From Acidimicrobiia bacterium (GTDB lineage: Bacteria > Actinomycetota > Acidimicrobiia > IMCC26256 > JAOSJM01), in the NCBI GenBank assembly GCA_027494165.1, contig JAOSJM010000005.1, positions 1,452,461 through 1,516,460 of the forward strand: a DNA stretch of 64,000 bases, read 5' to 3'. Shown piece after piece: positions 12,121 through 36,937 of the stretch (positions are counted from its first letter, which is position 1; the number at the start of each line of letters is the position of its first letter). The position numbers were made by a program, and so were the translations under genes. The notes beneath the pieces are model-generated. The model ran no database searches. It was not told the DNA's origin and saw only the letters and a program-made list of their open reading frames with translations.

Positions 12121-12300
12121 TCCTCCCCCTACCCCCGGGTTGGCGCGCTTTCGGGGCTGTGGACCCCGATTCCGCACCAACCCGGCGAGGAGGAGGCGCA
12201 CCAACCCGGCGAGGGAGGGTGCGTTCCGGCCGGATGCCGTGCCCGGGTTGGCGCGCTTTCGGGGCTGTGGACCCCGATTCCGCACCAACCCGGCGAGGGG
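12121..12300. repeat. two copies of a 56-bp nested-palindromic intergenic element (locus 1 of the family)
   Basis: cccgggttggcgcgctttcggggctgtggaccccgattccgcaccaacccggcgagg appears at about 12133-12188 and 12239-12295. Outer arms GGGTTGGCGCG/CGCACCAACCC and inner arms CGGGG/CCCCG predict a hairpin. The same core recurs near 33.5 kb and 35.5 kb. Confidence 0.85.
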
Positions 12301-26783: not shown

Positions 26784-26874
26784 CGCGCCTCCCGCCGCCA
26801 GGGCTCGCGCCGTTCCCCGGCGGCCGAACGCTACCGGACGGTAGGGATCGGCCGCTTCCCCGAGTCGCGACGGG

Positions 26875-28465
26875 CTAGTGGACCTTGCAGTCGCTGGTGA
26901 GCTCGATGTCCTCGCCGGTGGCGTCGGGCGGGTCGACCGTGCAGAGGGTGCCCCACCCGCCTTCGAGGATCTCGGTGACGGTGTCGGGGAAGGCCCGGCG
27001 GTTGGCCTCGAGGGTCGGGCGCACGAGGTGGGTGGGGCCGACGTAGTCGGGGAAGGCGGGCAGCCACACCTCCTCCCACTCGCGGCCGAGCTGGTAGGGA
27101 GGGTCGGTCTCGGCGGGGCCCGTGTGGCGCTCGAGGGTGATGAGGACGAGCTGGTCCTCGGTGATGGCGAGGTGGCGGTCGGGTTCGAAGCCGTACTCGA
27201 GGCCGGCGAAGGTGGTCGTGAGGCCCTCGAGGGCGGTGACGACGGCCTCCCGGTCGGTGGTCCCGGCCCGGCGGACGGCCTCGACGAGGGCCCACAGGCC
27301 GTTGGCGGGGGACTCCTCGCCCCCGGTGGCGGGGATGCCGAGGTAGTCCTGCATCCAGGTGCGGATGGGGAAGGTCGGCAGGCCGATGAGGCCGCCCATG
27401 TGCCAGGTCGTGAGGCTCCCGGTCTTCGCCGCGTCGCCGGCCAGCTCGGCCCACTTCTTCTCGCCGGTGCCGCCGGGCCAGCCCATCACGTGCGGGCGCC
27501 AGGCCGGGCCCTTGGCCGTGGGGGGTGTCGACGTAGCCGGCACCGAGGGCGTCGAGCCCCTTCACGATCCCCGCGACGCTCTCCGCGGCTCCCCAGAGGC
27601 AGAGCGCCTGGGGAGCCGACTGCTGGAGCCGCTGGAGCTGGGCCCCGAAGTCGGCGGTGAAGAGGGTGAACTCCTCGACGCCGGCGACCGGCATGTCGTG
27701 CTTGGCGACCGCGTGCTCGAAGCTCTCCCGGAACGTCTGGCTGATGGTGCTGTCGTAGGCCAGGCCCACGCTCGCGTAGCCCCGGTCCTCCTTGGCGTAG
27801 CGGACCAGGAGGTCGAAGGCCATCTTGTCGGGCTGGATGAACTGGAAGATCGAGCGCTCGGGGACGTCGGGGTAGAGGAGCCCCTGGGACCACATGTCGT
27901 AGAAGACCGAGATGATCGGGATGCCGTCACGGGCGATCTGGGGGCGGGCCTCCTTGAGCCCGATGGGCGTGCACCACAGGATGCCGACGACGTCGGGGTC
28001 GGCGACGAGCTGGGCGTAGGCCCGGTTCGTGGCGTCGACCAGCTCCTCGGCCTTGGCGTTCACGATCTCGAGGGTGACCTTCGTGCCCTTGACGAGGCCC
28101 TCGCGCTCGATGTGCTCCATGGCGGCCCGGAGCGAGCGGTCGACGACGTCGCCGACGAACTGGCCGAGGCCCTCGAGGGGGGCGATGACGCCGATCTTCA
28201 GGCTGGACGGCAGGGTGGTGCCGCCGTCGCCTCCGCCGCTCCCGCCGGTCCCCGTCGTGCTCCGGGTGCCCCCCGTGCTCGGGCTCCCGCCGGAGTCCCC
28301 GCCGTCGCCGTCGCCGCCGCCGCACCCGGCGAGAGCGCCCCAGGCCCCGATCAGGGCCATCCCGGCCAGGCTGCTGCGGGCGGCCCACTCCATGAACACC
28401 CGCCGGTCGACGGGGCGGCGGATCAGGTCGTCGGCGCTGATGCGGATGGGCTCGTGCTCGGCCAC
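26875..28465 (-). CDS. ABC transporter substrate-binding lipoprotein (LivK/amide-binding family), paralog 1, apparent frameshift near 27520-27525
   Basis: Tat/lipoprotein signal RRVFMEWAARSSLAGMALIGAWGALAGCGG followed by a periplasmic binding fold. The C-terminal 222 aa (ORF 26875-27543) are in another frame. Removing one G from the six-G run reconstitutes YVDTPTAKGPAWRPHV, which matches the paralog. Confidence 0.75.
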
Positions 28466-28577: not shown

Positions 28578-30134
28578 TCAGTGGATCTTGCAGTCGTTGC
28601 TGAGCTCGATGTCCTCGCCGGTGGCGTCGGGCGGGTCGACCGTGCAGAGGGTGCCCCACCCGCCTTCGAGGATCTCGGTGACGGTGTCGGGGAAGGCCCG
28701 GCGGTTGGCCTCGAGGGTCGGGCGCACGAGGTGGGTGGGGCCGACGTAGTCGGGGAAGGCGGGCAGCCACACCTCCTCCCACTCGCGGCCGAGCTGGTAG
28801 GGAGGGTCGGTCTCGGCGGGACCCGTGTAGCGCTCGAGCGACACCAGCACCACCTGGTCCTCGGTGATGGCGAGGTGGCGGTCGGGTTCGAAGCCGTACT
28901 CGAGGCCGGCGAAGGTGGTCGTGAGGCCCTCGAGGGCGGTGACGACGGCCCGCCGGTCGGTGGTCCCGGCCCGGCGGACGGCCTCGACGAGGGCCCACAG
29001 GCCGTTGGCGGGGGACTCCTCGCCCCCGGTGGCGGGGACGCCGAGGTAGTCCTGCATCCAGGTGCGGATCGGAAGCGAGGGCAGGCCGATGAGGCCGCCC
29101 ATGTGCCAGGCGGTGAGGGTCCCGGTCTTCGCCGCGTCGCCGGCCAGCTCGGCCCACTTCTTCTCCCCGGTCCCGCCGGGGGAGCCGAGGACGTGCGGGC
29201 GCCACTGCGAGCCCCGGGCCGTGGGCGTGTCGACGTAGCTCGCGCCGATCGCGTCGAGGCCCTGGACGATCCCGGCCGTGTTCTCGGCCAGGCCCCAGAC
29301 GAAGAGGCAGTGGCTTCCCTGGTCCCCCAGCCGCTGGAGCTGGGCGCCGTAGTCGGCGCTGAAGATGTTGAACTGCTCGACGCCGGCCACCGAGAGGCCG
29401 TGCTTGTCGATGGCCCGCTCGAACCCCGTCCGGTAGACCTCGCCGATGCTGCTGTCGTAGAAGAGCCCGGCGCTGGCGTAGCCGCGGTCCTCCTTCGCGT
29501 AGCGCATGAGGACGTCCATGGCCATCGAGTCGGGCATGAGGAGCTGGAACACCGAGCGCTCCGGCCCGTCGGGGTAGAGCCAGTCCTCGGACCAGGCGTC
29601 GTAGAAGACCGAGATCACCGGGATGCCGTCGCGGGCGATCTGGGCCCGGGACTCGGGGAGCCCGACGGGCGAGCACCAGAGGATGCCGACGACGTCGGGG
29701 TCGGCGACGAGCTGGGCGTACGCCTTGCCCGTGGCGTCGGCCAGCTCCTCGGCCTTGGCGTTCACGATCTCGTAGGAGACCTTCGTGCCCTTGACGAGGC
29801 CCTCGCGCTCGATGTGCTCCATGGCGGATCTCAGGGAGTGGTCGACGATGTCGCCGATGAACTTCCCGAGCCCCTCCATGGGCGCGATCACCCCGATCTT
29901 GAGGGTCGGCGGGAGCGTCCCGCCGTCGCCCTCGCCGTCGCCGGTGCCGGTCCCGGTGGTCCGCCCGGTCCGGTCGGAGTCGTCGTCGCCGCAGCCGGAC
30001 AGCCCGCCCCACGCCCCGAGCAGGGCCATCCCGGCCAGGCTGGTGCGCCCGGCCCACCGGAGGAACACCCGGCGGTCCACCGGGTGGCGGACCACGTCGT
30101 CGGCGGGGACCCGGAGAGGCTCGTGCTCGGACAT
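28578..30134 (-). CDS. ABC transporter substrate-binding lipoprotein (LivK/amide-binding family), paralog 2 (intact)
   Basis: ATG 30132-30134 gives MSEHEPLRVPADDVVRHPVDRRVFLRWAGRTSLAGMALLGAWGGLSGCG and a 518-aa protein. Its 3' ~650 bp are about 95 % identical in DNA to paralog 1. Confidence 0.85.
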   Translation of the reverse strand: MSEHEPLRVPADDVVRHPVDRRVFLRWAGRTSLAGMALLGAWGGLSGCGDDDSDRTGRTTGTGTGDGEGDGGTLPPTLKIGVIAPMEGLGKFIGDIVDHSLRSAMEHIEREGLVKGTKVSYEIVNAKAEELADATGKAYAQLVADPDVVGILWCSPVGLPESRAQIARDGIPVISVFYDAWSEDWLYPDGPERSVFQLLMPDSMAMDVLMRYAKEDRGYASAGLFYDSSIGEVYRTGFERAIDKHGLSVAGVEQFNIFSADYGAQLQRLGDQGSHCLFVWGLAENTAGIVQGLDAIGASYVDTPTARGSQWRPHVLGSPGGTGEKKWAELAGDAAKTGTLTAWHMGGLIGLPSLPIRTWMQDYLGVPATGGEESPANGLWALVEAVRRAGTTDRRAVVTALEGLTTTFAGLEYGFEPDRHLAITEDQVVLVSLERYTGPAETDPPYQLGREWEEVWLPAFPDYVGPTHLVRPTLEANRRAFPDTVTEILEGGWGTLCTVDPPDATGEDIELSNDCKIH

Positions 30135-30325: not shown

Positions 30326-30409
<84 letters not shown>

Positions 30410-30580
30410 CTCTCCGGTCCGGCCCGCGGTGCCCGCGCGCTCCGGGCGCGCGAGCGGGCCTACGCTCTCGCCTCGTGGACCGGTCCGGGCGATCCGCGTG
30501 GCCCCACGGGTGTGCGGTCCGTCGCCGCACGACGCGGGATCCCGGCGCCTCCCGAACGGAAGCCGCTCCGGGAGCGCGAC

Positions 30581-30983
30581 CGTGATCCGCCTCGTGGCGT
30601 CCGGCGTCGTCAGCCTCGTCGCCAGCGCGGTCGCGCTCGTCGTCGGGGCCGCCGTGCTCGACGGCATGGCGCTCGAGCCAGACGGCTTCGTGGTCGCGGT
30701 GCTCGTGTTCACCGTGGTCGAGGTCATCGTGGAGCCCCTCATCCGTCAGACGGCGTTCCGGAGCGCGCCCGCCCTGCTCGGGAGCAGCGCGCTCGTCGCG
30801 ACCCTCGCCAGCCTCGTCGTCACGGTGGCCGTCACGGACGGGTTGCGGATCTCGGACGCCGGGACGTGGGTGCTGGCGACGGTGCTGGTCTGGGCCGTGG
30901 CGCTCGTCGCCCGGTTCCTGCTGCCCTTCGTGGTGTTCAAGCGCGTCTTCGCGGAGCAGCGGGCGGCCGGCCACCGCCGCTGA
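30581..30983 (+). CDS. small 4-TM membrane protein (phage-holin-4-like / DUF superfamily), hypothetical
   Basis: GTG start gives VIRLVASGVVSLVASAVALVVGAAVLDG...VVFKRVFAEQRAAGHRR. The upstream part of the ORF overlaps the tRNA and is not coding. Confidence 0.5.
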
Positions 30984-31217
30984 GCCCCGGGCGTCGGCGT
31001 CGCCACCGGCGACGGCTCCCGGGTGTCTCCGGCCCCGTCGGGCGGCGGGGGGCACACCCGGGTGGCCCGGGCGCGGTGCATCCTCCCGGGGTGTCCGTTA
31101 GCGTCTCGTCCGGCCGGTCCGGCGCGCGGGCGACGCCGGCCCGGCCGTCGGACCTGCCGTCGGACCAGCCGGGCCGCCGCAGACCGGCGAGCGTGGATGA
31201 CGGGGAGGAGCCACACG

Positions 31218-31604
31218 ATGGCCGCAGGGAGCGCAGGGCTGCACGAGGAGGCCGGGAAGCTCCGGCCCGAGACGATCGAGCGACACCGGGCCGTCGTCTC
31301 GCTGATGGAGGAGCTCGAAGCCGTCGACTGGTACGACCAGCGGGTCGACGCGTCCGGGGACCCGGAGCTCGCCGAGATCCTCGCCCACAACCGCGACGAG
31401 GAGAAGGAGCACGCCGCCATGCTCCTCGAGTGGCTCCGCCGGCGCGACCCCGCCCTCGACGGGCACCTGCGGACCTACCTCTTCACCGAGGCGCCGGTCA
31501 CCGAGATCGAGGAGGCCGAGGAGGGCGGCGGCGGTGACGGAGGAGCCGAAGGGGATGCTGCCGCCGGTCTCGGGATCGGCTCGCTCCGGGAGGGTGCCCG
31601 ATGA
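31218..31604 (+). CDS. encapsulin-associated ferritin-like cargo protein (EncFtn) with C-terminal cargo-loading peptide
   Basis: RBS GGGGAGGAG precedes ATG 31218. The ferritin-like E..H motifs are ETIERHRAV and DEEKEHAAM. A Gly-rich linker is followed by GLGIGSLREGAR, which matches the family-1 encapsulin targeting peptide consensus. The stop overlaps the encapsulin start (ATGA). Confidence 0.8.
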   Translation: MAAGSAGLHEEAGKLRPETIERHRAVVSLMEELEAVDWYDQRVDASGDPELAEILAHNRDEEKEHAAMLLEWLRRRDPALDGHLRTYLFTEAPVTEIEEAEEGGGGDGGAEGDAAAGLGIGSLREGAR

Positions 31605-32401
31605 ACCGCCTCCTGCGCGACGCGGCCCCGATCTCCGGCGCGGCCTGGGCGGCGGTCGACGACGAAGCCCGCCGGGCCCTACGCCACTTCCTCGCCGCCC
31701 GCCGGTTCGTGGACTTCAGCGGCCCTCGCGGGTTCGACCTGGCCTCGATCCCGGTCGGCCGGCTCGGGTCGACCGGGGCCTGGCTCGGTGAGGGCGTCGA
31801 CGTCGCGCTGCGCGAGAGCCAGCCCGTCGTCGAGACCAGCGTCGACCTCACCCTGCGCCGGGCCGGGCTCGAGACGATCGAGCGCGGGGGCGAGCCCGAC
31901 CTCGAGCCCGTGCTGGAGGCCGCCCGCCGGGCGGCCCTCGCCGAGGATCGGGCCGTCTTCCAGGGCATCGACGAGCGCGACCTGCCGGGGATCGTCCCGG
32001 CGTCGCCGCACGAGCCGATCGGCATCGGCGACGACTACACCCAGTACCCCACCCTCGTGACGAGGGCGGTCGAGCAGCTCCGGCGGGCCGGGGTGGGCGG
32101 TCCCTACGGCATCGTGCTCGGACCCCGCTGCCACGCCGGCGTGCTGGAGACCACCGAACGGGGCTACCCGGTCATCGAGCACCTCAAGCTCGTGCTCGAC
32201 GGGCCGATCGTCCCCGCCGACACCGTGTCGGGGGCCGTGGTCCTGAGCGCGCGGGGTGGCGACTACGAGCTCGTGAGCGGGGTCGACTTCGAGATCGGCT
32301 ACCGCTCCCACGACGCCGAGACGGTCACGCTCTTCCTCCGGGAGACCTTCGCCTTCCGGGTGCTCGAGCCGGCCGCCGCGGTCGCGCTCGTCCATCCCTG
32401 A
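31601..32401 (+). CDS. enc: family 1 encapsulin nanocompartment shell protein (HK97 fold, Cfp29/linocin-like)
   Basis: The 266-aa protein aligns along its whole length with mycobacterial Cfp29 (MNRLLRDAAPISGAAWAAVDDEARR...GGPYGIVLGPR...GYPVIEHL...IGYRSHDAETVTLFLRETFAFRV). Confidence 0.88.
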   Translation: MNRLLRDAAPISGAAWAAVDDEARRALRHFLAARRFVDFSGPRGFDLASIPVGRLGSTGAWLGEGVDVALRESQPVVETSVDLTLRRAGLETIERGGEPDLEPVLEAARRAALAEDRAVFQGIDERDLPGIVPASPHEPIGIGDDYTQYPTLVTRAVEQLRRAGVGGPYGIVLGPRCHAGVLETTERGYPVIEHLKLVLDGPIVPADTVSGAVVLSARGGDYELVSGVDFEIGYRSHDAETVTLFLRETFAFRVLEPAAAVALVHP

Positions 32402-32578
32402 GGCGCACCCGCGGTCCCGGGCTCGGCCGGCGATCCCGCCGGCCGGCGCCGGCCGCCCGGCGCGTCCACTCGCTCCCCGAGGTGTCGTCGGCCCCCGCCG
32501 GGGGGGCGGGTCGGCTCCCTGCTCCGGTGACGAGCGGCGGACGGTGGCAGGCTGGTGCCGCACCGACGAGGGGACGCC

Positions 32579-33490
32579 ATGAGGCTGGGGATCTCGCTGC
32601 GCAGCGCGCACGCCGTCGACGACGCCCGCGTCGGCGCACGCTGGATGGTCGAGCGGGCGGTCGTGGCGCGCGAGGCCGGGCTCGACTCGCTCTTCGTCGG
32701 GGACCACCACGCCGTGCCCGTCCCCTACTACCAGAACACCGCGATCCTCGGTCGCCTGCTCGCCGAGTGGGGGGACCGGCCGGCGGGCGCGCTCTACCTC
32801 CTGCCCCTGTGGCACCCGGTGCTGGTGGCCGAGCAGGTCGGCACGCTGGCGGCGATCGCCCGGGGACGGTTCGTGATGCAGTGCGCGGTCGGCGCCGGGG
32901 CCGGGCAGTTCGGGGCGCTCGGCGTGGCCCCGGCCGACCGGGCGTCCCGCATGGAGGCGGCCCTCGACGTGATCCGCCGGCTCCTCCGCGGCCAGGAGGT
33001 GACCTCGGACGGGCCGTGGCGCATCGGACCGACCCGGATCGCGCCCCTGCCGCCCGAGCCGGTCGAGGTGTGGGTGGGAGGTCATGCCCCACCGGCCGTC
33101 GACCGGGCCGCTCGGCTCGGGGACGGGTGGCTGGCCGGGCCGGAGCTGCTCCCCGCCGAGGCCCGGGACCTGCTCGAGGCGTACCGGGAGCGCTGTCACG
33201 TCCACGGCCGGACCCCGAGCGCGATCGCCATCCGCCGCGACGTCCACGTGGGGGCCGATCCCGCCGACGCCCGCCGGGTCGCCGAACGCGTGCTGGAGCG
33301 GGGCTACCGGGGGTTCCGGCCCGGGGTCTGCGTCGTGGGCGGGGTGGAGGAGGTCGCCGGGGAGCTCCGGGACCTCGGGTCGATGGGCTACACGGACGTG
33401 ATCGTGCGCCACCTCGCCGACGACCAGGGCGAGGCGCTCGCCTCGATCGCCCGGCTGCGCGAGGTGCGGGCCGCGCTCATCGACGCCTGA
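32579..33490 (+). CDS. LLM-class (luciferase-like) F420/flavin-dependent oxidoreductase
   Basis: MRLGISLRSAHAVDD...LDSLFVGDHH...VWVGGHAPPAVDRAARLGDGWL matches the bacterial luciferase-like TIM barrel pattern. Confidence 0.8.
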   Translation: MRLGISLRSAHAVDDARVGARWMVERAVVAREAGLDSLFVGDHHAVPVPYYQNTAILGRLLAEWGDRPAGALYLLPLWHPVLVAEQVGTLAAIARGRFVMQCAVGAGAGQFGALGVAPADRASRMEAALDVIRRLLRGQEVTSDGPWRIGPTRIAPLPPEPVEVWVGGHAPPAVDRAARLGDGWLAGPELLPAEARDLLEAYRERCHVHGRTPSAIAIRRDVHVGADPADARRVAERVLERGYRGFRPGVCVVGGVEEVAGELRDLGSMGYTDVIVRHLADDQGEALASIARLREVRAALIDA

Positions 33491-33514
33491 GGGCGCGCGG
33501 GAGGGCCCCTGGTC

Positions 33515-33795
33515 TCCTGCCGGGTCGGCACGTTTTCGGGGCTGTGGACCCGGTTCCGCTCCAACCCGGCCGAAATGACATGGGGTCGGCGCGCCGGGGC
33601 TCTGGACCCCGATTCCGCTCCAACCCGGTTGAGTGACATGCCCGGGTCGGCGCGTGCGGGGCCGGTCTCCTGCCGGGTTGGCGCGCTTTCGGGGCTGTGG
33701 ACCCCGTTTCCGCTCCAACCCGGTTGAAATGACATGCCCGGGTTGGCGCGTGTTCGGGGTTCTGGACCCCGATTCCGCTCCAACCGAGCGCTCCG
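33515..33795. repeat. tandem array of 4-5 degenerate ~72-bp nested-palindromic units (locus 2 of the family)
   Basis: Units of the form CGGGT(C/T)GGCGCG...CGGGGCTGTGGACCCCGATTCCGCTCCAACCCGG+TTGAAATGACATGCC. One unit carries an extra half-copy. The units are contiguous and have no unique spacers. Confidence 0.85.
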
Positions 33796-33798
33796 GGC

Positions 33799-34701
33799 TC
33801 AGGGCTCGACGAGGACACCGACGACGTCGTGGACCGCGTAGGCCGTGCCGGCGGAGAGGCGCGCGCTCCCGACGGGGACCGGACGGCCCGCGATGCCGGG
33901 GCCGGTCAGGACCACGTCCGCGGTCCAGGTCGCCCGGACCGTGAGCGAGCGGGAGCCCCGGATCTCGAAGTCGAGCCGCGCCGCGGGGTCCCCCGCCCGG
34001 CCCGGCAGCTCGGAGGCCTCGGCGGTCTCGCCGCGGTCGGTCTCCCATGCCACGGCGGCGAGGCGCGCCGTGCCGGTGACCGTCCACGGCCCGATCGACA
34101 CCGCGACCGCCACCTCGGTCGGGCCGTCGTACCACAGGTCCGTGGCCATCCCCACCAGCCCGACGGGCGGGCTGGTCCCGGTGCGCGGCGGCGGGACCTG
34201 GGACAGGGCCCGGGCCCAGATCTCCCCGATCGACGGGACCGGTGGCAGCGGAGGTGGGGCGGGAGGCTCCCCGCCGAGGTCGTAGGGCACGCAGACCGTC
34301 TCGGACGCGAGCAGGTTCCCGGCCAGGTCGAGGGTGAGGAGGCGGTACGACCAGCCCAGGGCGTGCTCCGGGGGTCCGGTGTCGCAGAGGTGGTCGAGCG
34401 GCGTCCCCCCGGCTCCCGGGGAGTCGGCCGCGACCCACACGTGCTGCACGACGTCCGGACCACCCGCCCCGCCCGGGCCCACCGCCTCCCAGGTCCCCGA
34501 GCCGCCGGACCCGGCTGTCCCGGGAATCCCGATCTCCACCGTGATCGTGCCGTCGGGGTCGAGGCCGCCCCCGTGGGACGGTTGCCCGTCGGCGAGCGCG
34601 GTCCGGGGGACGAGGAGGACGATGGCCGCGGAGACCACTGCGGCGGCGACCGACGTCGTGCGCCGGGCGGGGCCGGGCGGGTCGGTGGCCCGTCCGGTCA
34701 C
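33799..34701 (-). CDS. secreted hypothetical protein
   Basis: GTG start with signal peptide VTGRATDPPGPARRTTSVAAAVVSAAIVLLVPRTALA. About 300 aa, Pro/Gly-rich with two Cys. The start overlaps the upstream lipoprotein stop (GTGA). Confidence 0.55.
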   Translation of the reverse strand: MTGRATDPPGPARRTTSVAAAVVSAAIVLLVPRTALADGQPSHGGGLDPDGTITVEIGIPGTAGSGGSGTWEAVGPGGAGGPDVVQHVWVAADSPGAGGTPLDHLCDTGPPEHALGWSYRLLTLDLAGNLLASETVCVPYDLGGEPPAPPPLPPVPSIGEIWARALSQVPPPRTGTSPPVGLVGMATDLWYDGPTEVAVAVSIGPWTVTGTARLAAVAWETDRGETAEASELPGRAGDPAARLDFEIRGSRSLTVRATWTADVVLTGPGIAGRPVPVGSARLSAGTAYAVHDVVGVLVEP

Positions 34702-35399
34702 AGCTCCACCACCAGGTCCTCGACGGCCGCCGACCAGTCCGCGATCCGCCAGCGTCCGCCCCGGTCGGCGACGAGCACGACGGTCCAGGCGTACGGGGTC
34801 CCCCGGGGCCACTCCTCGACGAGCTGCCCGCTCGCGTCGACGATGCGCTCGCTCTCGTGACGGTCGACGAGACGGAGGCTCGCGGCGTCGGGGAGGACCG
34901 ACAGGACCTCCACCGACAGGACCTGGTACCCCGCGTCGGCCCAGCGGTACCCGCGCTCGACGAGGAGCTCCTGCCAGGCGAGCTTGTGCTCGTAGGGGAG
35001 TGTCCCGGGGACGTAGACCTCGTCGAGGAGCGACGGGTCGGGGTTCTCCCCGATCCATCGTGACGCGAGGATCAGCGACGCCAGGATCGCCGCGTGGTCG
35101 TCGCCGGTGTTGACGATGCGTGGGCGGGGGATGCCGTGCAGCGAGCCGGCCGGGAGCGGTCGTGACAGGTCGGGCGCCGGCGCGGCCGTGACCGCGGTGG
35201 TCGGCGTCGTGTCCGGCGCCGGCGTCGACGCGGGCCCGGGCGCGGCATCGCCGGTCGTCGTGGAGGTCGCCGGTGGGGCCGGGACGGGACGCCTCGCCGG
35301 ATCGGCGCCCGCCCCGGCCCCGCGGCCGCAGCCCGCGGCGATCGCCACGAGGACGATCCATCCCAGAGCGCCTCTGAGTGCACCAGGGTGCGTCACCAT
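34698..35399 (-). CDS. hypothetical lipoprotein
   Basis: Lipobox LVAIAAGCG with a Pro/Thr-rich linker. Conserved-looking C-terminal domain (EVYVPGTLPYEHKLAWQELLVERGYRW...). Confidence 0.55.
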   Translation of the reverse strand: MVTHPGALRGALGWIVLVAIAAGCGRGAGAGADPARRPVPAPPATSTTTGDAAPGPASTPAPDTTPTTAVTAAPAPDLSRPLPAGSLHGIPRPRIVNTGDDHAAILASLILASRWIGENPDPSLLDEVYVPGTLPYEHKLAWQELLVERGYRWADAGYQVLSVEVLSVLPDAASLRLVDRHESERIVDASGQLVEEWPRGTPYAWTVVLVADRGGRWRIADWSAAVEDLVVEL

Positions 35400-35449
35400 G
35401 CCCCGCTCCGCCGGTCAGGACACCAGTCGCGGCGAGCCTACCCGGTTGT

Positions 35450-35700
35450 CCCAATCCGGTCGAGAGGGATGAACCGTCCCCGGTCGGGTTGGTGCGGGAT
35501 CGGGGTCGAGAACCCCGAAGCGCGCCAACCCGGGATGGAGGGAGATGGAGGGAGATGGAGGAGCGTGCCAACCCGGCGAGACGACGGGTCCGGTTGGTGC
35601 GGGATCGGGGTCGAGAACCCCGAAAGCGCGCCAACCCGGGATGGAGGAGATGGAGGGAGATGGAGGAGCGCGCCAACCCGGGATGGAGGGGGGGACGGAG
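35450..35700. repeat. two ~110-bp units of the palindromic element in opposite orientation, each followed by a (GGAGGGAGAT)n-like purine microsatellite (locus 3 of the family)
   Basis: ggttggtgcgggatcggggtcgagaaccccgaa(a)gcgcgccaacccgggatggagggagatggag... occurs twice. It is the reverse complement of the 12.1-kb and 33.5-kb core. Confidence 0.85.
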
Positions 35701-35710
35701 CTTCCCCGGG

Positions 35711-36937
35711 CTAGGCGGTGTGGTCCGAGACCCAGGCCAGGATGCGGAAGTACACCGTGAAGATGGCGTCGCCGTAGTGGCTCGCCGTCGCCCACGTCCC
35801 GGTCAGGCCGCCCCACGTCGGGGCGACGCCCCGGAGCTGGAACTCCCCGAGGCGGGGCAGGACCGGGGGGTTCGCCAGCGCGTCGACGGTGAGGCCGGCG
35901 TCGGCGTAGGCCCGCAGGAGCTGGATCTGGGCCCGCACGCCGCTGCGCGCGTCGGGGAACGAGTACCCGGTGTCGCAGCTGTCGCAGGCGCCGATGCCGG
36001 CGAAGTTGTTGTCGGTCGTCCGGACCTGGCCGTAGTCGGGGAGGTAGAAGTGGCCGGTCTCGAGCACCGACTGGGCGAACGCCACGTCGCCCCGGACACC
36101 CTCCGCCGCGCCCTCCTCCACGAACATCCGGGCCAGCTCCCGGATCGGCACGGTCGTGCGGGCGCGCACCCCCGTCGACTCGAACCAGGCGGCCAGCTCG
36201 TCGCCGCTGAGCCGGGAGCGCCCGAGGATCGGCGTGCCGGGCCCGGCGGACACCGAGGTCCAGCGGTCGAGGGCCCAGCGGGCCCGGCCCAGGGCCGCCT
36301 CGGCGTCGACCACGGCCGCCTCGGCCTCGGGGATCTGCTGCTCGAGGCGGACGAGCCGCTCCCCGAGCTGGCGGCGCTCGGCCACGACGGCCTCGAGCGC
36401 CGCGCGGGCCGTGGCCTCGTCCTCCCGGAGCCGCTGCACGAGCCGGAGCCGCTCGTCACTGGCCTGGGCGAACAGCTCGGCCCGCCGCCGCACGTCGAGG
36501 AGGTCGTCGGCGCTGGCGAGGGCCTCGAGCTCCCCGAGGTCCCCCCGCCCGACGTACGCCCGGACCGCCACCCGTTCGAGCTTCGCCCGGGTGGTGGCGT
36601 AGCGGGCGAGCGCGTCCTTGGCCTCGATCTGGCGGGCCACGGTCCGGGCCTCGGCGTCCTCGAGGCGGGCCCGGGTGTCGACGAGGTCGGCGTACAGGCC
36701 GTCCCGGTGCTGCGACGCGGCGAGCAGCCGGGCCTCGGCGTCGGTGACCTGGCGGCCGAGCGCCGCGACGCGGACCGCCGGTGAGGTGGAGCCTGCCGCT
36801 CCGGAGGTGGTGGGGCTCGCCGCGCCGACGACCGCCGGCCACGACGCCGCCAGCGCGACGACGATCGACGCCGGGCGGGCGAGCCGCCGGCGCGGGCGCG
36901 ACCACGGGCGCGACCACGGGCGCTTCACGAGGATCAC
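35711..36937 (-). CDS. secreted coiled-coil protein with C-terminal glucosaminidase (FlgJ/mannosyl-glycoprotein endo-beta-N-acetylglucosaminidase-like) domain
   Basis: Signal peptide, then a long Ala/Arg/Glu-rich coiled coil. The C-terminal domain carries ...SVLETGHFYL...NNFAGIGACDSC..., resembling the PF01832 catalytic motifs. Confidence 0.6.
   Translation of the reverse strand: MILVKRPWSRPWSRPRRRLARPASIVVALAASWPAVVGAASPTTSGAAGSTSPAVRVAALGRQVTDAEARLLAASQHRDGLYADLVDTRARLEDAEARTVARQIEAKDALARYATTRAKLERVAVRAYVGRGDLGELEALASADDLLDVRRRAELFAQASDERLRLVQRLREDEATARAALEAVVAERRQLGERLVRLEQQIPEAEAAVVDAEAALGRARWALDRWTSVSAGPGTPILGRSRLSGDELAAWFESTGVRARTTVPIRELARMFVEEGAAEGVRGDVAFAQSVLETGHFYLPDYGQVRTTDNNFAGIGACDSCDTGYSFPDARSGVRAQIQLLRAYADAGLTVDALANPPVLPRLGEFQLRGVAPTWGGLTGTWATASHYGDAIFTVYFRILAWVSDHTA

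Follow-up and report, generated by a model that had tools for sequence, protein, structure and literature searches.

The pair of genes at 31218–32401 raises the question of whether this Acidimicrobiia bacterium encodes a protein compartment for iron, in which a family 1 encapsulin shell encloses an EncFtn ferritin-like cargo. An earlier note, made from the letters of the sequence, had proposed a family 1 shell, an EncFtn cargo with a targeting peptide, and an overlap of the two genes, and this proposal is borne out by profile searches, Foldseek comparisons, and the homologues of both proteins. The locus is very probably a family 1 encapsulin operon of the canonical two-gene kind on an Acidimicrobiia (Actinomycetota) chromosome, and it would specify an iron-oxidizing and iron-storing compartment. 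Two co-directional ORFs are located exactly where the note had placed them on the plus strand of the window, which is the whole 64-kb stretch of DNA that was analyzed. The operon features the following elements:

31202–31210, plus strand: Shine-Dalgarno-like GGGGAGGAG, 7 nt 5' of the cargo ATG, read from the sequence
31218–31604, plus strand: EncFtn cargo gene, 128 aa including the targeting peptide, with the ATG at 31218 and the TGA at 31602–31604
31218–31508, plus strand: folded EncFtn domain of the cargo, residues 1–97, from an ungapped alignment to 5da5
31509–31562, plus strand: flexible Gly/Glu/Ala-rich linker of the cargo, residues 98–115, EEAEEGGGGDGGAEGDAA, from its composition
31563–31589, plus strand: targeting peptide core AGLGIGSLR, residues 116–124, followed by an EGAR tail up to the stop codon
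31588–31594, plus strand: Shine-Dalgarno-like GGGAGGG, within the 3' end of the cargo gene and 6 nt 5' of the shell ATG
31601–32401, plus strand: gene of the family 1 encapsulin shell, a 266-aa protein with a predicted HK97 fold, with the ATG at 31601 and the stop codon at 32399–32401
32417–32452, plus strand: GC-rich inverted repeat, 16 nt past the shell stop codon, with 16-nt arms that are 81% complementary and a 4-nt loop

The ATGA overlap (31601–31604) between the stop codon of the cargo gene and the start codon of the shell gene can be read directly in the sequence, and because the genes overlap in this way they are probably translationally coupled. The assignment of ATG 31218 as the cargo start is supported by the upstream GGGGAGGAG. 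This codon corresponds to Met1 of R. rubrum EncFtn in a residue-for-residue alignment, and the 128-aa protein deposited at NCBI agrees with it. The GC3 values in the called frames are 0.88 for the cargo and 0.94 for the shell, which is as high as expected of real genes in a genome with a GC content of ~74%; the GC content is uniform across the window at about 72–78%. A scan of 30400–32700 revealed no sigma-70-like promoter or intrinsic terminator. The inverted repeat at 32417–32452 has no T-tail and was not called by the terminator scan; tentatively, it may form a hairpin at the end of the operon. No IdeR/DtxR-type iron box was found in the whole window with 3 mismatches allowed, and the Rfam search of the window gave no match besides the tRNA described below and recognized no riboswitch.

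The identity of the shell was established by profile searches of the kind that the earlier note had proposed as a check. The protein matches PF04454 (Linocin_M18) with E=3.5e-75 and 252.9 bits against a cut-off of 24.3, covering profile positions 1–253 of 253, and it matches the equivalog NF041155, 'family 1 encapsulin nanocompartment shell protein', with 269.1 bits against a cut-off of 100, covering positions 1–261 of 261. The best PDB matches found by phmmer are T=1 family 1 shells without exception, with E values of 1e-60 to 1e-65, namely those from R. rubrum (9ry4, E=2.1e-65), Arthrobacter (9i8d, E=4.3e-64), H. ochraceum (7odw, E=1.5e-63), and K. pneumoniae (8u50, E=4.1e-62), and mycobacterial Cfp29 (7boj, E=9e-62). 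The end-to-end alignment with Cfp29 that had been described is genuine, with residues 1–263 of one protein aligned to residues 1–263 of the other. The native T=3 and T=4 shells, such as M. xanthus EncA, that of Q. thermotolerans, and similar ones, match the shell with E values of only ~1e-7 to 1e-13.

An AlphaFold2 model of the shell was built from an alignment of 38 homologues and has a mean pLDDT of 93.6 and a pTM of 0.88. Foldseek comparison with the PDB determined that the model superimposes over its full length on the shells from H. ochraceum, M. tuberculosis, and M. smegmatis with TM scores of 0.93–0.96 and an rmsd of 1.5–2.0 Å, and that the TM scores against T=3 and T=4 protomers are 0.73–0.81. 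The protein consists of 266 aa with one Pfam domain, agrees with the HK97 architecture of A-domain, P-domain, and E-loop, and features neither the N-terminal extension nor the cNMP insert of family 2-type shells. Based on the profile, PDB, and Foldseek matches, the assignment of the shell as an HK97-fold family 1 encapsulin of the T=1 type is well supported. A T number of 1, that is, 60 subunits, is suggested because both the sequence and the modeled fold are far closer to the T=1 shells than to the native T=3 and T=4 shells.

The HK97 fold is common to encapsulins and phage capsids, which are often mistaken for each other (PMC8346489), and this gives some weight to the alternative that the shell gene is a leftover major capsid gene of an HK97-type prophage and that its ferritin-like neighbor is coincidental. 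The genes on either side of the operon bear on this alternative:

30326–30410, plus strand: tRNA-Leu(CAG), ~800 nt 5' of the encapsulin operon
30582–30983, plus strand: small multi-pass membrane protein with a sub-threshold PF04020 match (27.1 bits, cut-off 28.8), directly 5' of the cargo gene
32579–33490, plus strand: LLM-class oxidoreductase (luciferase-like monooxygenase family) with a PF00296 match (E=1.6e-34), 178 nt 3' of the shell gene

The membrane protein could be taken to favor a prophage, as PF04020 is named 'phage holin 4_2'. However, no phage-like genes were found near the operon, and terminase, portal, protease, and tail genes are all absent nearby. The family 1 equivalog score exceeds its cut-off by a wide margin, and the best 50 Foldseek matches listed are all encapsulin shells or engineered derivative cages with no phage capsid among them. 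Additionally, the partner gene, which overlaps the shell start, encodes a protein with a conserved peptide for encapsulin targeting, and the same gene pair recurs in an unrelated genomic context. The latter occurrence is on a 1.5-Mb contig, L006, where a shell that is 54% identical is paired with the same type of EncFtn gene through the same 4-nt overlap in an unrelated neighborhood. Encapsulin operons are described as mobile and modular (PMC8346489), and the presence of the pair in this other neighborhood fits that description. Taken with the Foldseek results, the equivalog score, the neighboring genes, and the targeting peptide effectively refute a prophage origin of the shell, the chance of which is considered vanishingly small.

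The upstream membrane protein is probably unrelated to the encapsulin, because it is not conserved beside the operon on L006. Its gene is more likely to be 30582–30983 (133 aa) than the mechanically listed ORF 30369–30983, because the shorter gene is the one called in the independent contig L004. The start of the longer ORF is overlapped by the tRNA-Leu(CAG) gene. The best NCBIfam similarities of the downstream protein are to F420-dependent LLM oxidoreductases, all under cut-off, which suggests that it is probably an F420-dependent oxidoreductase; no link between this gene and the encapsulin was found. The farther neighbors encode an MMPL transporter, parts of a branched-chain amino-acid ABC system, and glucosaminidase-domain, transglutaminase-like, and Rieske proteins. 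No obviously iron-related gene was found among the neighbors.

The cargo protein was compared with the EncFtn profiles and scores above the curated cut-offs of both PF22277 EncFtn-like (E=1.8e-39, with 133.8 bits against 27) and the NCBIfam subfamily TIGR04535, 'encapsulin-associated ferritin-like protein' (with 143.9 bits against 125). It also matches NF058679 EncB_fam with 92 bits against a cut-off of 90. The best solved match is R. rubrum EncFtn (33bf/5da5), with a phmmer E value of 4.9e-46, an overall identity of 66%, and an alignment of residues 1–97 that is free of gaps, so that the residue numbering of the R. rubrum protein transfers directly to the cargo. Mutagenesis studies on R. rubrum EncFtn established the role of Glu32, Glu62, and His65 as the ligands of the di-iron ferroxidase site, and Tyr39, the group Glu31/Glu34/Trp38, and the group His57/Glu61/Glu64 are further metal-site residues described for EncFtn (PMC11202242). 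All ten of these residues (E31, E32, E34, W38, Y39, H57, E61, E62, E64, and H65) are identical in the cargo and 5DA5.

The earlier note had quoted two E..H motifs as those of EncFtn, of which one stands. The motif DEEKEHAAM contains the ligands Glu62 and His65, and of the two motifs it is the only one to hold, in its EKEH, the ExxH motif of the family. The other motif, ETIERH (Glu18 to His23), does not correspond to any described metal site, and the third ferroxidase ligand, Glu32, is instead located in the stretch MEELEAVDWY. By its sequence and fold, the cargo is an EncFtn-type ferritin-like protein whose predicted ferroxidase site is complete. Because of its identity to the characterized R. 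rubrum protein, the cargo would be expected to form a decamer (D5) and to have a ferroxidase activity that is boosted inside the shell.

The folded domain of the cargo is followed by a linker and a targeting peptide, and the C-terminus reads AGLGIGSLREGAR. The quoted features, a Gly/acidic linker (EEAEEGGGGDGGAEGDAAAG) and the terminal GLGIGSLREGAR, were both confirmed. The conservation of this end was analyzed in the 120 closest homologues of the cargo, which are drawn from many phyla and have identities of 62–100%. The region equivalent to the linker differs in both length and sequence across these homologues, and in crystal structures it is disordered (PMC11202242). The L-x-[IVL]-G-x-L motif is found in all 120 homologues at a distance of 0–21 residues from the C-terminus (median 5), and the exact LGIGSL, mostly followed by Lys or Arg, is found in 83 of them. 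The LGIGSL-type tail is thus conserved among the orthologs. Of the two outcomes that the earlier note had named as refuting it, a variable cargo tail and a shell that misses the encapsulin profiles, neither was observed. The map of the H. ochraceum shell (7OE2) has the peptide GSLGIGSLR built in, and the published core of the targeting peptide is GxLGIxxL (PMC8791618). The ending of the cargo agrees with this consensus, as had been claimed: the Leu, Gly, Ile, and Leu residues are in register and the first Gly is replaced by Ala to give AGLGIGSLR, a variant that also occurs in a few homologues.

EncFtn-fold proteins that have no targeting peptide are known (3k6c; PMC11202242), and by comparison with them the cargo could be a free, non-encapsulated ferritin-like protein of the short NE0167 type that works outside the shell. 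The cargo, however, bears both the full linker and the targeting peptide and scores above the cut-off of the encapsulin-associated subfamily TIGR04535. Also, EncFtn decamers alone are unable to retain mineralized iron (PMC8346489). A role outside the shell is for these reasons judged to be highly improbable, and the cargo is treated here as an encapsulated EncFtn.

The site on the shell that would receive the targeting peptide was examined by alignment to K. pneumoniae Enc (8U50). In that protein Arg34, Asp38, Asp229, and Ile230 were probed by mutagenesis, and Arg34 and Asp229 are essential for loading (PMC10960027). The shell keeps Arg34, Asp38, and Asp229 and features Phe at position 230, as does the R. 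rubrum shell. Both Arg34 and Asp229 are invariant in the alignment of 38 shell relatives. The partner of Asp38 is the basic residue directly after GSL, in the cargo Arg124. The luminal P-domain peptide pocket of the shell is conserved and, as judged from the alignment, appears to be intact.

The shell has just 57% identity to its nearest non-identical relative, and the closest relatives of the cargo have 76–80% identity to it. Residues 205–207 of the shell (32213–32221) are P-A-D, in contrast to W-A-P in 95% of 37 relatives, and residue 45 (31733–31735) is Phe, in contrast to Trp in 95% of the 37 relatives. In total, the shell deviates at 7 of the columns whose conservation in the 37 relatives is 90% or higher. 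A degenerating shell was considered and rejected: the relatives themselves deviate at 0–9 such columns, so the count of 7 is at the high end and still within their range, and gives no sign of decay. The AlphaFold2 model is confident through the region of residues 205–207. The substitutions are read here as ordinary divergence, and the shell appears from its sequence to be rather divergent within the T=1 clade. The alternative that P-A-D and the W45F change alter the assembly, pore dynamics, or stability of the shell relative to the characterized EncFtn encapsulins is given little credence; if it were true, the variant encoded at the locus would be structurally distinct, and it would come from an uncultured lineage of the Acidimicrobiia for which there is no study of an encapsulin.

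The most likely function of the two proteins is a 60-subunit compartment that would oxidize and store iron, and the mechanism proposed for it is drawn from characterized encapsulin systems (PMC11202242, PMC8791618, PMC8346489). By analogy with R. rubrum, H. ochraceum, and T. maritima, 60 shell subunits would assemble into a cage of ~24 nm. During shell assembly the pocket on the inner P-domain of each protomer could take one cargo tail, so that a few EncFtn decamers would be trapped inside the cage by means of their tails. The pores of the shell would admit Fe(II), which would be oxidized at the inter-subunit di-iron sites formed by Glu32, Glu62, and His65. The ferric mineral would be kept in the lumen of the shell, because EncFtn by itself cannot retain it, and this would provide both iron storage and protection from iron-driven oxidative damage. 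Assembly, loading, ferroxidase activity, and iron storage at this locus are all predicted from the orthologues. No evidence that contradicts the encapsulin and EncFtn assignments was found, and the locus suggests that the organism may sequester iron in a protein compartment.

There are two other ways in which the same compartment could be used. Its main role could be protection from oxidative stress through the detoxification of Fe(II) and peroxide and not bulk storage, or it could hold mainly another cargo with a gene at a different place in the genome, such as a DyP peroxidase. The solved shells closest to this one include DyP-loaded shells, and the peptides of such cargo are near-identical to the one found here, e.g., SGSLNIGSLK, which makes cross-loading chemically plausible; moreover, the contig is at least 1.54 Mb long, and the search for cargo covered 64 kb of it. 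However, the partner that is co-transcribed and translationally coupled with a shell is normally its primary cargo, and a six-frame scan of the 64-kb window found no further genuine targeting-like C-terminus. The sole additional candidate in that scan is a long frame (35378–36784) with a targeting-like end, which was rejected as spurious because it runs antisense to a real gene. A primarily protective role or a different main cargo is regarded as unlikely, and iron oxidation and storage by the EncFtn cargo is the preferred reading.

Outside of the operon the window features a family of ~51-nt imperfect palindromic repeats with 86–100% mutual identity, CCGGGTTGGCGCG..TTCGGGG.TCTGGACCCCG.TTCCGCTCCAACCCGG, which are clustered between genes and resemble REP/BIME-type elements. 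The copies are located as follows:

12135–12185: one copy of the ~51-nt repeat
12243–12293: one copy of the ~51-nt repeat
33520–33785: 4 copies of the ~51-nt repeat
35485–35639: 2 copies of the ~51-nt repeat, in opposite orientation

The cluster at 33495–33800 folds better than shuffled sequence (z = −2.7). Two inverted clusters flank ~1.7 kb of DNA (33799–35480) that contains the minus-strand ORFs 33799–34851 and 34698–35399. Both ORFs are protein-like and have no Pfam match; one product is Pro/Gly-rich and secreted-looking, and the other has an N-terminal lipoprotein-like signal.

Additionally, the window contains tandem paralogous genes for Peripla_BP_6 substrate-binding proteins at 26831–28465 and 28578–29951, both on the minus strand. 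The 26831–28465 gene is split over two frames near 27510–27560, which points to a frameshift and to either a pseudogene or an assembly error. Its N-terminal part, in the frame of 28465, has 70% identity to the neighboring paralogue, and its C-terminal part (26875–27561, in a different frame with a GC3 of 0.98) has 92% identity to it. This uneven identity hints at gene conversion.

The suggestion that this instance may be uncatalogued did not hold. The exact proteins are already present in NCBI from an Acidimicrobiia MAG, where the cargo is MCZ7527911.1, 'MAG: ferritin-like domain-containing protein [Acidimicrobiia bacterium]', and the shell is MCZ7527912.1, 'MAG: family 1 encapsulin nanocompartment shell protein [Acidimicrobiia bacterium]', both on a 1.54-Mb contig. 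An identical locus is found in the assemblies of two further sequencing runs, SRR11288141 and SRR30756391, and annotated homologues are present in other Acidimicrobiia MAGs. A scan with the shell of one genome per GTDB species returned three distant loci only, with 39–42% identity (Paraburkholderia, Actinomycetospora), and the source genome was not among them. The part of the 2021 encapsulin catalogue's supplementary tables that was accessible contains no Acidimicrobiia names, and none of the papers searched names both encapsulin and Acidimicrobi*. This absence shows only that the lineage has gone undiscussed and says nothing about the novelty of the system.

The kind of system is well described, both proteins are in the public record, and the standard annotation pipeline has given the shell its correct name. 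The cargo record could take the more specific name 'encapsulin-associated ferritin-like protein'. With this locus, a family that has thousands of members and several solved structures gains a further EncFtn-type encapsulin, in this case from an uncultured member of the Acidimicrobiia, and the sequence may be of use as a further high-GC pair of shell and targeting peptide for engineering. Nothing at the locus suggests new biology; the value added by the analysis is the name of the cargo and the correction of its metal site.

Among the known systems, a more distant one is the T. maritima encapsulin with its Flp cargo (3DKT). It is a system of the same kind, with a T=1 shell and a ferritin-like cargo that has a C-terminal peptide, but the shell is only 31% identical (E=2.7e-35). 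The T. maritima peptide, GGDLGIRK, features an internal salt bridge, which is not expected here. The mycobacterial Cfp29 and DyP-type T=1 shells (7BOJ, 7P1T, 9BKX) and K. pneumoniae Enc (8U50) align end to end with ~42% identity and TM scores of 0.95–0.96. They have the pocket residues Arg34, Asp38, and Asp229 in common with the shell described here; however, their genes adjoin those of DyP peroxidase cargo, whereas the partner here is EncFtn, and position 230 is Ile in K. pneumoniae Enc and Phe here.

The H. ochraceum encapsulin:EncFtn system (7ODW, 7OE2, 5N5F) also features a T=1 family 1 shell, with a TM score of 0.93 and 44% identity, and its EncFtn matches the cargo with E=4.9e-38. The peptide bound in its shell is almost identical to the one found here. 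The two systems differ by sequence divergence only, and a tetrahedral arrangement of four loaded decamers is conceivable for the locus described here. R. rubrum EncFtn (Rru_A0973) and its encapsulin (5DA5, 33BF, 9RY4) are the best solved match of both genes. The host of the R. rubrum system is an alphaproteobacterium, whereas the host here is an actinobacterium of the Acidimicrobiia. The R. rubrum shell has 280 aa, while the 266-aa shell described here does without its small insertions; the linker is shorter here than in R. rubrum, and the peptide begins with A-G-L here and with G-S-L in R. rubrum. Apart from these differences, the R. rubrum system has the same operon logic and the same LGIGSL(K/R) tail as the Acidimicrobiia locus.
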